From NCBI GenBank assembly GCA_027364655.1, contig DAHXOX010000071.1:4938-68937 (forward strand): DNA of 64,000 nucleotides, written 5' to 3'. The notes below the pieces were generated by a model. That model was not told the DNA's origin. It saw nothing but the letters and a program-made list of their open reading frames with translations, and did not search any database. Positions 46,317-50,991 of the stretch are shown here, in pieces. A program made the translations under genes and the position numbers. The stretch comes from Paludibacter sp. GTDB lineage: Bacteria; Bacteroidota; Bacteroidia; Bacteroidales; Paludibacteraceae. Position 1 is the first letter of the stretch, and each line of letters starts with the position of its first letter.

Positions 46317-47513
46317 ATGAAAAAAATGACCTTGTTCGTGATGCTGACGTTTGTTGTCAGTGTCACAATGGCTCGCGAAACGAAAAAAAAACCTGTAGAA
46401 GAAGGGTTTGTGTTTACCACCGTGAAAGCAAACCCTATTACTTCTGTCAAAAACCAAGCCAATTCAGGCACTTGCTGGGACTACTCAGGCCTTGGATTTT
46501 TAGAATCAGAATTACTGCGTATGGGCAAACCTGCCTACGATTTATCGGAAATGTTTGTAGTTGATCATGAATATCAACAAAAAGCTGTCAAATATGTGCG
46601 TATGCACGGAAAACTTAATTTTGGCGCCGGTGGCGAGTTTTGGGATGTCTTCGATATCATCAAAAAATATGGTATTGTTCCTGCATCAGTCATGGAAGGG
46701 CTTAACTACGGAGACACCCTCAACAACCATGGAGAATTGGATGCCACCACGTTGGCCTACGTAGACGCTATCGTTGCCGATCCTAACAAGCATTTATCAA
46801 CCGCTTGGTTCAATGGTTTTAAAGGTATCCTGACTGCCTATCTGGGAACCATTCCCGAAACGTTCTCCTACCAAGGGGTTCAATACACGCCAAAATCTTT
46901 TGCGGCATCATTAGGGCTTAACATGGACGACTACGTTTCCATCACTTCGTTTACGCATCACCCTTTTTACAAACCTTTTGCCATCGAAATTGAAGACAAC
47001 TGGCGCTGGGCACAATCATACAACATACCATTGGACAGCTTAATGGCAACCATCGACAACGCTATCAATAACGGATATACGGTAGGCTGGGCTGCCGATG
47101 TAAGCGAAAAGGGATTCACACGTCAGGGCATTGGCGTAGTACCCGATGTAAATCCTAACGTTTGTCCAGCTGGAACTGACGAAGCCAAATGGATCGCAAT
47201 GACACCAAAAGAGCGTGACGAATTAGTTTACAAAGTGACCAAACCTGTTCCCGAAAAAGTGATTACCCAAGAAATGCGTCAAAAAGCGTTTGACAACTAC
47301 GAAACAACCGACGATCATGGCATGCAAATCTTCGGGATTGCCAAAGATCAAAACGGCACAAAATATTACATGGTGAAAAACTCATGGGGCACCGAAAACA
47401 AATACAAAGGTATCTGGTATGTTTCCGAAGCCTACGTCCGTTACAAAACCATTGATATTGCCATTAATAAAGCGGCTATACCTGAACCTATTCGCCAAAA
47501 ACTCGGGTTTTAA
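46317..47513 (+). CDS. pepC: Secreted C1B cysteine aminopeptidase (bleomycin hydrolase/PepC-like)
   Basis: Signal peptide; QANSGTCW, DDHGM and VKNSWG catalytic motifs; TATCTTTG box at 46188-46195. Confidence 0.9.
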   Translation: MKKMTLFVMLTFVVSVTMARETKKKPVEEGFVFTTVKANPITSVKNQANSGTCWDYSGLGFLESELLRMGKPAYDLSEMFVVDHEYQQKAVKYVRMHGKLNFGAGGEFWDVFDIIKKYGIVPASVMEGLNYGDTLNNHGELDATTLAYVDAIVADPNKHLSTAWFNGFKGILTAYLGTIPETFSYQGVQYTPKSFAASLGLNMDDYVSITSFTHHPFYKPFAIEIEDNWRWAQSYNIPLDSLMATIDNAINNGYTVGWAADVSEKGFTRQGIGVVPDVNPNVCPAGTDEAKWIAMTPKERDELVYKVTKPVPEKVITQEMRQKAFDNYETTDDHGMQIFGIAKDQNGTKYYMVKNSWGTENKYKGIWYVSEAYVRYKTIDIAINKAAIPEPIRQKLGF

Positions 47514-47530: not shown

Positions 47531-47565
47531 AGTGAAGCCCTCACGTAACGTGAAGGCTTCACTTT
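47531..47565 (+). terminator. pepC terminator
   Basis: AGTGAAGCC...GGCTTCACT stem followed by TT. Confidence 0.65.
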
Positions 47566-47578
47566 AATAAACACCGCC

Positions 47579-48658
47579 ATGGACAAAACGATTGCCTTCT
47601 TTGTACCAACATTCATTTACTTAGTAATCTTTGCATTAAATGCATTATTACCGGGACGCTGGGTAACGGGTTATGTCACGAAAGTAAATTCGTCAGAAAA
47701 AATGAGATACCACCTCAATGGTATTCTCATCTTCTTCGTCATGGTTATGCTATGGCTTTTATTAGGATGTTATCATATCATATCCTGCGATTGGCTCTAT
47801 CAATATCGTTGGTACGAATTGGCAGGCGCTTTTATTTTTGGCATCATGGTTAGTTTAGTCGTCGTTTTGCCCTACCCGCGTATCAGAAATTCATTTTGGT
47901 CTGATTTCTATTTGGGAAGAATAGAAAACTTACAACTGTTGGGTGGACGTATTGACGCAAAAATGTGGTTGTACTTAGCCGGAGCCATTCTATTAGAGCT
48001 GAATGTACTAAGCTTTGCCGCCCATCACTGGATATTGTATGGAATTCACGCTTCGCCTGGTATTTATCTCACAACCATATTGGTCACCTATTTTCTGATC
48101 GATTATCTGACCTTTGAAGAAGTACACCTCTACACATACGATTTATTCGCCGAACGGGTTGGATTCAAATTAGCATGGGGATGTCTTGTCTTTTATCCCT
48201 ATTTTTATGCAATCTCCCTGTGGTCAACGGTCGATCTACCAAATCCTCATACGACAACCTGGTTATTTGGCATTTATGCCCTTATCTTCTTTTTGGGCTG
48301 GAGCCTATCGCGTGGTGCCAACCTTCAAAAGTATTTCTTTAAAAAGGATCCCGAAAAATCTTTTCTGGGCATTGTGCCCAAAACCATCACCGATGGCAAT
48401 CGAACCTTGTTAGTAAATGGCTTTTGGGGAATTAGCCGGCACGTGAATTATTTAGGAGAGATACTCATGGGCACGGGCATCATCCTTTGCACAGGCTATC
48501 CAATGCTTATCTGGCCTTGGTTATATCCATTATATTATGTGGCGCTCTTATTCCCCCGTCAGAAAGACGATGACGTGCGATGTGAACTGAAATACGGCAC
48601 CTTATGGAACGAATACAAACAAAAAGTGCCTTACCGAATCATTCCTTATATCTATTGA
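47579..48658 (+). CDS. ERG4/ERG24-family (delta14/delta7/delta24 sterol reductase-like) integral membrane reductase
   Basis: Y.LNG near the N-terminus, FYLGR, YDLFAERVGFKLAWGCLVFYP, SRGANLQKYFFK, LLVNGFWGISRHVNYLGE, RQKDDD.RC.LKYG..WNEY...VPYRIIP; these are the hallmark blocks of ERG24/DHCR7/LBR-type reductases. Confidence 0.88.
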   Translation: MDKTIAFFVPTFIYLVIFALNALLPGRWVTGYVTKVNSSEKMRYHLNGILIFFVMVMLWLLLGCYHIISCDWLYQYRWYELAGAFIFGIMVSLVVVLPYPRIRNSFWSDFYLGRIENLQLLGGRIDAKMWLYLAGAILLELNVLSFAAHHWILYGIHASPGIYLTTILVTYFLIDYLTFEEVHLYTYDLFAERVGFKLAWGCLVFYPYFYAISLWSTVDLPNPHTTTWLFGIYALIFFLGWSLSRGANLQKYFFKKDPEKSFLGIVPKTITDGNRTLLVNGFWGISRHVNYLGEILMGTGIILCTGYPMLIWPWLYPLYYVALLFPRQKDDDVRCELKYGTLWNEYKQKVPYRIIPYIY

Positions 48659-48715: not shown

Positions 48716-49879
48716 TCAATAATTAAAATCTTCCGGTTCGCCGTTTAGCAATCTTCCTTGAAGAATAATTTTTCGCATCATTTGAATAATATTATCTTCA
48801 TCGTAGGCTTTTTTGACTTTTCCCGCGCTTTCTTTAGATGACAAACCCAACTCATTAAACAGTCTATATTCCTCATAAACAACATCCAATGCTTCCGCAA
48901 TTTTAATGTTGTTGTATTTTTTAGCGGCAAATACAATGGCTTCGTTCCAGTTGAGATGCGATGGAAGATATATTTGTCTGTCAGCCGATGACAAAACATC
49001 TATAGCCACTTCAACATCTTCAGGGAAAGGAATTACGCTTTCTTTATTATACTGAACTTCAAACCCTTTAAAGAGTTGAATAAAATATTTATCCGATTCA
49101 AAGTATTTGGCAAATGCAATGAGTTCATCGCCCATTCCGATTAGTAAAGGCCTATGATCTTGGGTTTCAGATGGAGTAGGAAGTACGCCATTATTTTCAT
49201 GAACGAGTCTTAGATAAAAAGTTTCTTTTTGCTCTTTCGAATTGGATAAGTTAAGTAAGACTCCGGTACCCATTCGGCTATCATAAAATTCATACCAGGC
49301 AGGCATATCTGCCATATTTCCATGCTCATCCTTTTGAGTAAGCTCCTCGTAATCCTGCCACGACCCGAACATCGGCTCATCTATCGCTTTATCAAACTCA
49401 TTAGCCGTGAGAAGATATTCTTTCATAAACTCCTTTTCATGTGGCTCAATAGATGGAATAAACGGGCATGAAGTAATATGATTTTCCCAAAAATGAAAAT
49501 CATAACAAATATCAACTTCATCAATCTGTTTTTGACCAGCCCGCCAAAGCAATTGCAGGTTAAACAATTTCTTCTGTAGAATGGCATGTAACGCGTTTTC
49601 CGCTTTTTTATGAAAGATCAATTCATAGTCTTCCTTTTGACGGAGAATCTCATTGTAATATTCATACGATTTGGCTAATTCAACTTTTTTCCGTGCATAG
49701 CTTTCAATAAAATATTCAATATGTCTGCCATTGAATTGCTCAAAATAAGCTTTTGCATTTTCCGAGTTTCGCACATCGGCATAAAATGATTTTTCAAGTT
49801 CTTTGAAAAAAGCATCCTGCTCACCAAATTCTTTGGGCAAGCGACTTTTGTGAAACGTAAAACTTTCGAAATCAATCAT
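48716..49879 (-). CDS. Hypothetical protein (387 aa, acidic, soluble)
   Basis: Long open frame with protein-like composition; contains LQKKLFNLQLLWRA and MPAWYEFYDSRMGTG; no family recognised. Confidence 0.8.
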   Translation of the reverse strand: MIDFESFTFHKSRLPKEFGEQDAFFKELEKSFYADVRNSENAKAYFEQFNGRHIEYFIESYARKKVELAKSYEYYNEILRQKEDYELIFHKKAENALHAILQKKLFNLQLLWRAGQKQIDEVDICYDFHFWENHITSCPFIPSIEPHEKEFMKEYLLTANEFDKAIDEPMFGSWQDYEELTQKDEHGNMADMPAWYEFYDSRMGTGVLLNLSNSKEQKETFYLRLVHENNGVLPTPSETQDHRPLLIGMGDELIAFAKYFESDKYFIQLFKGFEVQYNKESVIPFPEDVEVAIDVLSSADRQIYLPSHLNWNEAIVFAAKKYNNIKIAEALDVVYEEYRLFNELGLSSKESAGKVKKAYDEDNIIQMMRKIILQGRLLNGEPEDFNY

Positions 49880-49938: not shown

Positions 49939-50736
49939 TCATAACCGATACATTTTCTTCGTGTTATCACCCATCAACGTAATCGCCATTTTGCGTGACA
50001 TCATCTTTTGCATAAGAAACGATGCTACACGATTGCCGCTTCCAATGATATAGGAAGGCCGCTTCCCCAATTTCTTGAAACATTCATTAGGTATCTCTTC
50101 CGGCAATTGCACTCTGGGAGCAAAGATACTTATTTTTTCGGGCAGTGTATTTTTGAAGTTGGGTGTAGCCGTAGCGCCTGCACAACAGGCAATGATATCT
50201 ACTCCATTGTTTTTCCACTCATACCATAAACTTTCGGCCAACACACGATTATAGGCTTTTGTTGCAGCATACATCGTAAAAAAACCGCTTCCCTGAAAAC
50301 CTGCCAACGATGCCATCAACACAATCGCGCCTCGTCCTTTGGCCAGCATCTTTCCGCCGAACGTATGAAGGAAATTCAAAGGAGAAAGCATATTCACCTG
50401 AGCCATCTGTTCATGGTACTCTACGGAATTTTCTATAAACGGACCAATATATGACAGCGCAGCATTATAGACCAACAAATTGATTTCCTTCCCATGCAGT
50501 GCTTCTTCTATTTGCTGTGTAGCATTGGCATTTGCCAAATCACAAGGAATACACGTTACCTCAACGTGATACCTGCTTTTCAACTTGTCGACCATTTGTT
50601 GCAACGGTTCAAGACGGCGTGCAATAAGCACCATATCCAATCCTTCAGTCGCCAAATAAGTTGCAAAGGCAGCTCCGATACCTTCCGAAGCTCCCGCCAC
50701 CATCGCTGTCTTACCATATTTCTGTTGTAGATTTAT
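49939..50736 (-). CDS. Short-chain dehydrogenase/reductase (17beta-HSD/3-ketoacyl-CoA reductase-like); start ambiguous
   Basis: AGASEGIG Rossmann motif, IARR (NADP-type), YNAA, catalytic YAATK. The conserved N-terminal INLQQKYGKTAMV lies upstream of the first in-frame ATG (50703). Confidence 0.85.
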   Translation of the reverse strand: MNLQQKYGKTAMVAGASEGIGAAFATYLATEGLDMVLIARRLEPLQQMVDKLKSRYHVEVTCIPCDLANANATQQIEEALHGKEINLLVYNAALSYIGPFIENSVEYHEQMAQVNMLSPLNFLHTFGGKMLAKGRGAIVLMASLAGFQGSGFFTMYAATKAYNRVLAESLWYEWKNNGVDIIACCAGATATPNFKNTLPEKISIFAPRVQLPEEIPNECFKKLGKRPSYIIGSGNRVASFLMQKMMSRKMAITLMGDNTKKMYRL

Positions 50737-50991
50737 TGATTTATCTTTTTGATATGATGACCATTACAATGTGTTGGAGCAATAATCGATCTTAGCATTA
50801 ACACAAAACCTACCCATTTTGAGAATCAAATTGGGCAGGGTTTTTACAAAAAACTCGTTGATGAATGAATGTGTATTATCTCTATGCAGATGCAAATATA
50901 GACATAAAATTCACATAATCGGGTTTCACACGTACATATCGCTTTTTTGCCAACATAAAACGCATTTTCAGTTACATATCAAGGCAAAAAA

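Follow-up and report, generated by a model that had tools for sequence, protein, structure and literature searches.

The DNA considered here is a stretch of 64,000 nucleotides (hereafter, the window) from Paludibacter sp. (Bacteroidales, Paludibacteraceae; assembly GCA_027364655.1, contig DAHXOX010000071.1), and its element of interest is a gene at 47579–48658 (+) coding for a membrane reductase of the ERG4/ERG24 family, together with a nearby gene for a short-chain dehydrogenase/reductase (SDR; 49939–50736, −). Bacterial members of this family are usually taken either to indicate sterol synthesis or to have been acquired from eukaryotes. The reductase of the window is no canonical sterol reductase of eukaryotic derivation and falls into a distinct branch comprising bacterial and uncharacterised protist proteins, called here F/E-type for the Phe and Glu at the positions of the predicted catalytic Tyr and Asp. 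The best explanation, held with about even confidence, is that this enzyme is an NADPH-dependent membrane reductase of carbon–carbon double bonds (C=C) strictly paired with an SDR of the NADP(H) type, both together forming a module that saturates an exogenous lipid. That the reductase and the SDR constitute a functional module is, taken by itself, highly probable. The SDR was absent from the initial annotation of this gene, and its presence likely changes the chemistry to be expected of the reductase.

The reductase gene starts with ATG and runs through 359 uninterrupted codons in the reading of open reading frames (ORFs) of the window, the complementary frame being closed by many stops. The product is polytopic, and both signature blocks on which the initial annotation had relied were found in it, TLLVNGFWGISRHVNYLGE as residues 276–294 and RCELKYGTLWNEYKQKVPYRIIPYIY as residues 334–359. 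The proposed search against PF01222 (ERG4_ERG24) returned 152.9 bits (E = 1.5e-44, cut-off 27), residues 7–359 aligning with positions 71–432 of the 432-position model. The match to DUF1295 (PF06966) was marginal (21.6 bits over 80 residues, cut-off 20.4), PF02544 gave no match in the Pfam search, and NCBIfam gave none either. By sequence, the best solved structure is that of MaSR1 (4quv; E = 2.3e-36, 29–30% identity), followed by 9l5r, a delta14-sterol reductase of 592 aa (E = 5.9e-25). The AlphaFold model, for which 48 homologues were used (pLDDT 86.4, pTM 0.87), matched 4quv in a Foldseek comparison with PDB (TM-score 0.80 over 356 columns, E = 1.6e-15), where no other significant fold match was found and none to the structures of SRD5A or ICMT. 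The agreement is far beyond what would be expected by chance. The reductase is, hence, a genuine member of PF01222 and not a generic DUF1295, SRD5A or ICMT-like protein, in line with what had been claimed for it. The residues of the cofactor site are also kept: Asn290 and Arg327 align with N359 and R395 of MaSR1 and are invariant in 48 members of the clade. Their counterparts in the human lamin B receptor (LBR), N547 and R583, bind NADPH, and LBR mutations at these positions cause Greenberg dysplasia (PMC4951196).

The likeness to the characterised enzymes ends at the N-terminus and in the active site. The first transmembrane helix of MaSR1 is absent, the match beginning at position 71 of the Pfam model and residue 85 of MaSR1; no open frame upstream could supply the absent helix, and nine transmembrane helices are present vs. 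ten in the canonical C-14 reductases. The predicted catalytic residues of the latter are Tyr241 and Asp363 in MaSR1, equivalent to Tyr257 and Asp374 in ScERG24, and the tyrosine has been proposed to protonate C15 ahead of hydride transfer (PMC12489058). MaSR1 and ScERG24 keep both residues, and so does 9l5r, the delta14-reductase of known structure; in the reductase of the window, their positions are occupied by Phe172 and Glu294, which are invariant in its clade. The replacement of Asp by Glu is a conservative change and, taken alone, weaker evidence. Judging by its sequence, the reductase lacks three of the features by which C-14 reductases are defined, and we do not place it in that subfamily. 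Its initial assignment to ERG24/DHCR7/LBR is thus not supported in the functional sense.

The same substitutions recur across the family. In an alignment of 87 members (the best representatives of an exhaustive HMMER search, plus MaSR1), the Tyr column is occupied by Phe in 70 sequences, 91% of which carry Glu at the Asp column. This Phe-type group embraces all Bacteroidota members, most other bacterial short forms and proteins of amoebozoan, chytrid and choanoflagellate origin. Tyr-type sequences number 14 of the 87, including MaSR1 and a myxobacterial cluster, and Asp is found at the Asp column in 71% of them. Residues His183, Lys197, Cys202, Tyr206 and Trp241 are near-invariant in the Phe-type and missing in the Tyr-type proteins: where the former display F172/H183/K197/C202/Y206/E294, the MaSR1 group has Y, a variable residue (M/I/Q), M, D, another variable residue (I/V/Y) and D, respectively. 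The contrast between the F/E and Y/D patterns is drawn against MaSR1, ScERG24, 9l5r and the Tyr-type set. A profile search seeded with MaSR1-type sequences retrieved unnamed bacterial proteins only, and two cluster look-ups returned almost no informative names.

The second line of evidence is the pairing with the SDR, surveyed by calling and clustering ORFs in 80 related loci from species genomes. In 71 of the 80 loci, the SDR gene lies directly downstream of the reductase gene in convergent orientation (median gap 39 bp), and the two genes overlap in ten; in three further loci, the contig ends within 218 bp of the reductase. The six remaining carriers, which lack an adjacent SDR gene, all encode this SDR at another genomic site (59–67% identity). 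In the order (301 genomes), only the three carriers of the reductase possess an SDR with at least 55% identity, other matches not exceeding 38%. No other neighbour recurred across the 80 loci, and a link with the C1 peptidase, methylmalonyl-CoA genes or dextran polysaccharide utilization locus nearby was therefore rejected. Outside the phylum, a gammaproteobacterial reductase (51% identity) is encoded in one operon with an SDR, the end of whose gene overlaps the reductase start; this SDR is 40% identical to the Bacteroidota partner over the full length, including the C-terminal tail. The operon, located on a metagenome contig (locus L109, 5485–12133), comprises seven co-directional genes coding for a Sulfotransfer_3 protein, two PRK06197-like SDRs, a Polyketide_cyc2 protein, the partner-type SDR, the F/E-type reductase and a Rieske/KshA_C oxygenase. 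As a whole, the operon is a candidate for polycyclic-lipid tailoring, possibly with sulfation. In another relative, the SDR gene adjoins that of the reductase divergently upstream. The SDR is, therefore, strictly coupled genetically with the membrane reductase, also beyond the phylum. The annotated protein P0193 of Salpingoeca rosetta (785 aa) carries an F/E-type domain ending at model position 401 and then a 3Beta_HSD/Epimerase-like domain, so it could be a Rosetta-stone fusion supporting the coupling of the reductase with a dehydrogenase or, alternatively, a merged gene model.

The partner of the window reductase (49939–50736, −; about 265 aa) is a classical SDR featuring the motifs AGASEGIG, LIARR and YNAA, Ser143, the Y156-x3-K pair and a C-terminal tail conserved in the orthologues. 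The Arg-Arg after strand 2 is a mark of NADP(H) preference, and the catalytic and cofactor motifs are all intact. Its best NCBIfam match is NF050024, a 7beta-hydroxysteroid dehydrogenase (155.8 bits, full length), and the best structures are those of 7beta-hydroxysteroid dehydrogenases (5fyd/5gt9, E = 3.6e-40); it resembles very-long-chain ketoacyl reductases as well. The canonical ATG of the gene is lost: its homologous start reads ATA (50736–50734) and the next ATG is at 50703. In the start region (50703–50766, −), the window has TCA ATA AAT where a metagenome-assembled genome (MAG) of Paludibacter has ATG ATG AAC. The nine codons from the ATA to the ATG at 50703 differ from that MAG only synonymously; hence, translation probably starts at the ATA, or else the base is an assembly error. 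Counted from the ATA, the ratio of nonsynonymous to synonymous substitution rates (dN/dS) of the SDR gene vs. the MAG copy is 0.135; that of the reductase, vs. the copy in the same MAG (90% identical protein), is 0.06. Both genes are under purifying selection in this lineage.

The loss of the tyrosine proton donor, the gain of His, Lys and Tyr, and the pairing with the SDR led us to propose a carbonyl intermediate and a conjugate reduction, an SDR-assisted mechanism whose chances we put slightly below even. According to this scheme, the SDR would convert a hydroxyl next to a double bond reversibly into a carbonyl; the membrane enzyme would then transfer hydride from NADPH onto the conjugated C=C, which would not need the canonical Tyr as a proton donor; eventually, the SDR would restore the alcohol from the carbonyl. 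Overall, an unsaturated lipid alcohol would be converted into its saturated form. A delta5-3-beta-sterol processed in this way would yield a stanol via the delta4-3-ketone, and polyprenol or phytol would yield an alpha-saturated alcohol. What we infer from the features described above is the sequence of the reactions, the carbonyl as their intermediate and the substrate. The most likely substrate class is a 3-hydroxy lipid of the sterol/steroid type, the chances for and against which appear balanced.

As for the host, the window lies on contig C236 of an assembly of 2.51 Mb, 96.9% complete, where the reductase is the single PF01222 copy. The initial annotation had noted the lack of squalene epoxidase and oxidosqualene cyclase (OSC) in the window, and this absence holds genome-wide. 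The domain search found no match to SQHop_cyclase_C, the domain of squalene-hopene and oxidosqualene cyclases, in the genome, and tblastn with Bacteroidota queries found there no OSC, squalene synthase, squalene epoxidase or HMG-CoA reductase; the genome likewise contains no cytochrome P450. Since squalene and sterol synthesis are missing, the substrate in this organism would be either acquired from the surrounding sediment or a cellular lipid other than a triterpenoid, and a scavenged sterol, as suggested initially, is plausible. The only gene of the COX1/heme-copper-oxidase family in the genome is a 767-aa ORF (181 bits; C163:5910–7247, −) falling into the size and score class of a second, weaker set of matches in other carriers. 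Its length and score suggest that it is probably a quinol-type nitric-oxide reductase and not an O2 reductase; the two sister genomes have no match to the heme-copper oxidase family. Given the absence of the sterol-pathway genes and of an O2-type heme-copper oxidase, an anaerobic bacterium which does not synthesise sterols is a fair description of the host. The anaerobic setting supposed at the outset thus stands for the genus of the window, which lacks heme-copper O2 reductases; a link of the module to anaerobiosis does not, since genuine terminal oxidases occur in most other carriers and the module is not anaerobe-specific. The DNA assemblies containing the window sequence come from a metagenome of sediment and, with a smaller share, from one of mine drainage; no RNA runs with this sequence were found.

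Homologues of the reductase are abundant in metagenome-derived protein collections (more than 3400, nearly all exactly 359 aa long, with 62–86% identity), where they bear labels such as “delta14-sterol reductase” (JGI), “Ste14” and “DUF1295”. All sampled clade members come from uncultured organisms, with no cultured isolate among those looked up, and the clade inhabits free-living Bacteroidota of sediment, soil and lakes. The nearest public copies belong to a MAG of Paludibacter sp. (90% identity) and to a Microbacter MAG (73%) of the same GTDB genus. The gene was detected in three of 121 genomes of the family (all of one genus), in three of 301 genomes of the order, two of them from the genus of the window, and in two of 401 genomes of a phylum-wide sample, i.e., the module is present in less than 1% of the sampled Bacteroidota genomes. 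This prevalence ruled out a phylum-wide housekeeping gene, a guess made from the 70% identity across orders. The tree of 75 copies largely follows the orders and has short branches, with a clade of Bacteroidales and Marinilabiliales set apart from Chitinophagales, Saprospirales and Sphingobacteriales. Accordingly, the module looks old, slowly evolving and patchily retained and not recently imported; a recent import from eukaryotes was rejected on the same grounds, and the label “eukaryote-type” is not supported for a reductase of a bacterial short-form clade. One copy out of place was found in locus L048, a 2.2-kb contig binned as Luminiphilus sp. (Cellvibrionales) with a Bacteroidota-type reductase (66% identity) and a convergent SDR; its reductase nests among Chitinophagales sequences in the tree, and contamination of the bin, not transfer, is the most likely explanation. 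The literature searches returned nothing on this clade in Bacteroidota, consistent with the initial annotation, which knew of no description for Bacteroidales. A 2026 paper in J Bacteriol on an “8,14-sterol reductase” deals with an unrelated NTF2-fold enzyme.

Clues to the substrate come from the genomes of the carriers. A full-length OSC is encoded in nine of 42 carrier genomes vs. none of 400 genomes of the phylum (Fisher's exact test, p = 2.7e-10), a comparison which sets mostly uncultured MAG carriers against a phylum sample with no phylogenetic control. Seven of the nine cyclases display the motif ITDCTAE. Beside the cyclase (loci L086–L094), genes of squalene synthase, squalene epoxidase and HMG-CoA reductase are present in six, five and three of the nine MAGs, respectively. 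These MAGs, uncultured Chitinophagales-like and other Bacteroidota, look like producers of protosterols beyond the published cases of Fluviicola and Eudoraea. In four of them, the cyclase is adjoined by a conserved 413-aa protein belonging to no Pfam family. The P450s of six of the nine cyclase-positive carriers (about 300 bits) were considered as CYP51 and rejected, their helix I reading AGHETT or AGNETS, not GQHTS; no CYP51-type P450 was found in the cyclase-positive carriers. The OSC enrichment, along with the KshA_C and SRPBCC (Polyketide_cyc2) neighbours, points toward polycyclic substrates; the leaning to sterols is also favoured by the sulfotransferase of the gammaproteobacterial operon and by the hydroxysteroid-dehydrogenase relatives of the SDR.

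A number of points weigh against the lipid-saturating module acting on sterol-type lipids. Apart from the makeup of the OSC comparison, the enrichment may stem partly from shared lineage or habitat, and the cyclase is absent from 33 of the 42 carriers and from the genome of the window itself. Lacking CYP51, the cyclase-positive carriers would make protosterols with no delta14 bond and no double bond conjugated to C3. The absence of the Tyr proton donor itself speaks against a sterol-like substrate. On the side of the SDR, the score against NF050024 does not reach the equivalog cut-off (300 bits), and a mycolate reductase model matches nearly as well (136.8 bits); hence, the partner is not an orthologue of the 7-beta-hydroxysteroid dehydrogenase. 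To these come the lost ATG of its gene and the convergent order of the two genes in Bacteroidota, by which the pair is not co-transcribed. Finally, the function ascribed to the F/E-type branch is read from sequences and a structural model.

Three other explanations were weighed against this one. The same two-enzyme module could process a non-steroid allylic-alcohol lipid by oxidation, conjugate reduction and re-reduction; candidate substrates are undecaprenol, which would give an alpha-saturated, dolichol-like carrier, phytol from chlorophyll, which would give dihydrophytol, and sphingoid bases. This option, which we regard as possible and rather unlikely, accommodates the exchange of the catalytic Tyr for Phe in a remodelled active site, the strict SDR partner and the lack of a squalene/sterol pathway in the window genome and in most carriers; an order-following tree suits a long-kept cellular function, the SDR is similar to the mycolate and very-long-chain ketoacyl reductases, and a precedent exists in the DHRSX/SRD5A3 pair (PMC11250103). 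However, genes of polyprenol, phytol or sphingolipid metabolism are not linked to the pair in the 80 loci, an essential role in carrier-lipid synthesis would not be confined to less than 1% of Bacteroidota genomes, and the company of OSC, KshA_C and SRPBCC favours polycyclic substrates. To our knowledge, all characterised PF01222 enzymes are sterol-biosynthetic reductases, none of them acting on a non-sterol, which also counts against a non-steroid substrate.

A conventional stand-alone reductase of delta14, delta7 or delta24(28) sterol bonds, acting on scavenged dienes by protonation and hydride transfer with the SDR as a mere neighbour, would readily explain the strong PF01222 match with its complete C-terminal signature, the JGI label on the clade members and the OSC enrichment among the carriers, and it would have a parallel in the orphan reductases of Coxiella, which modify host sterols (PMC8787468). 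It is nevertheless improbable: the predicted proton-donor Tyr, retained with its Asp in MaSR1, ScERG24 and 9l5r, is replaced by Phe throughout the clade; the protein has no counterpart of the first transmembrane helix; the SDR co-occurs strictly across phyla and gene orders; and the cyclase-positive carriers, devoid of CYP51, would offer no delta14 substrate. Moreover, delta8,14 sterols are rare outside biosynthesis. The idea that the pair is a decaying relic with no present function in the window lineage could draw on the lost start codon of the SDR, the splitting of the pair by an inserted ORF and the missing of both genes in most relatives of the family. It is scarcely credible in view of the intact frames, the intact catalytic and cofactor motifs, the purely synonymous changes in the nine codons following the ATA and the dN/dS of 0.06 and 0.135 relative to a copy 90% identical at the protein level. 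The paired F/E-type reductase and SDR saturating a 3-hydroxy sterol or steroid-type lipid, therefore, remains the explanation we prefer.

Two further elements of the locus deserve mention. The ORF splitting the pair (48716–49879, −; 387 aa, acidic) is a lineage-specific insertion between the reductase and the SDR and lies outside the conserved module. It was found only in the window and in the locus of the Paludibacter MAG (L002), where the gap between the reductase and the SDR amounts to 1280 bp; its GC content is lower (0.34–0.39), and it is 83% identical to the version in that MAG, with a dN/dS of 0.19. No match to it was found in Pfam, NCBIfam, PADLOC or PHROGs. Upstream, between the stop of the C1-peptidase gene (47511–47513) and the ATG of the reductase, lies a long hairpin (47531–47563, +), whose outer stem of 9 bp (AGTGAAGCC/GGCTTCACT) and inner stem of 5 bp enclose a TAA loop; it is followed by TTTAATAAA, with no clean T-run. 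In view of this hairpin, the reductase may possess its own unrecognised promoter or depend on read-through.

The F/E-type branch is large and is found in protists and in bacteria unable to make sterols, including fermentative Bacteroidales of sediments. Consequently, the automatic label “delta14-sterol reductase” is probably wrong for genes of this type and should not serve to infer sterol synthesis in metagenomes or biomarker studies; the six diagnostic residues provide a simple rule for telling F/E-type from MaSR1-type enzymes. The pair also represents a compact candidate for O2-independent lipid saturation (e.g., turning sterols into stanols or polyprenol into a lipid of the dolichol kind), and we know of no sediment microbial enzymes for such reactions. 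A more daring suggestion, for which the chances are slim, is that the pair is the system by which microbes of anoxic sediments, peat and lake bottoms hydrogenate sterols into stanols. The SDR would convert the delta5-3-beta-sterol into the delta4-3-ketone, the F/E-type reductase would place hydride on the conjugated bond, and the SDR would turn the ketone into the alcohol. The IsmA-type enzymes of sterol-to-stanol chemistry have been found only in vertebrate gut microbiomes, save for a low-confidence case in a termite microbiome (PMC12362056). If the suggestion is true, the pair would supply a gene marker of stanol formation in the environment, with which the stanol/stenol redox proxy and the sources of sedimentary 5-alpha/5-beta steranes could be traced genetically.

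Among the known systems, MaSR1 of Methylotuvimicrobium alcaliphilum (4QUV), ERG24, TM7SF2 and LBR have in common with the window reductase the Pfam family, the fold, the Asn/Arg of the NADPH site and the C-terminal KYG..W..Y. Unlike them, the window reductase has nine helices, Phe172/Glu294, the set of His183, Lys197, Cys202 and Tyr206, and an SDR partner. In addition, canonical C-14 reductases act downstream of OSC and CYP51 of the same organism, whereas the genome of the window possesses neither. Two proteins of Coxiella burnetii, Stmp1 (CBU1206) and CBU1158, are ERG4/ERG24-family members likewise lacking the rest of the sterol pathway and are thought to act on the sterols of another organism (PMC8787468). 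These orphan reductases are the nearest known situation; compared by description only, they are regarded as recent amoebal acquisitions of an intracellular pathogen, whereas the clade of the window reductase belongs to free-living Bacteroidota, has a largely order-following tree and is accompanied by the SDR.

The working principle of the pair has other parallels. Clusters of gut Odoribacteraceae/Bacteroidales encoding a 5-alpha-reductase and a 3-beta-hydroxysteroid dehydrogenase reportedly make isoallo-lithocholate, as Sato et al. are said to have described in 2021. Here again, a Bacteroidales membrane C=C reductase is linked to an SDR of the hydroxysteroid-dehydrogenase type and handles a foreign steroid without O2; however, these clusters are SRD5A-type, reside in the gut and act on bile acids, whereas the clade of the window reductase is PF01222-type and environmental. 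The partner SDR and the 7-beta-hydroxysteroid dehydrogenase of Collinsella aerofaciens (5FYD/5GT9) are both classical SDRs of the NADP(H) type. In human dolichol synthesis, DHRSX makes the aldehyde, SRD5A3 saturates the conjugated bond, and the aldehyde is then returned to the alcohol by DHRSX (PMC11250103). DHRSX is likewise a soluble SDR, and SRD5A3 (Dfg10 in yeast) is a membrane reductase, polytopic and dependent on NADPH, that shares the wider steroid-reductase superfold. The family of SRD5A3 is PF02544, that of the 7-TM steroid 5-alpha-reductases, and not PF01222, so the likeness is one of working logic only. By analogy, it is this arrangement that appears to fit the facts on the reductase and its SDR best.

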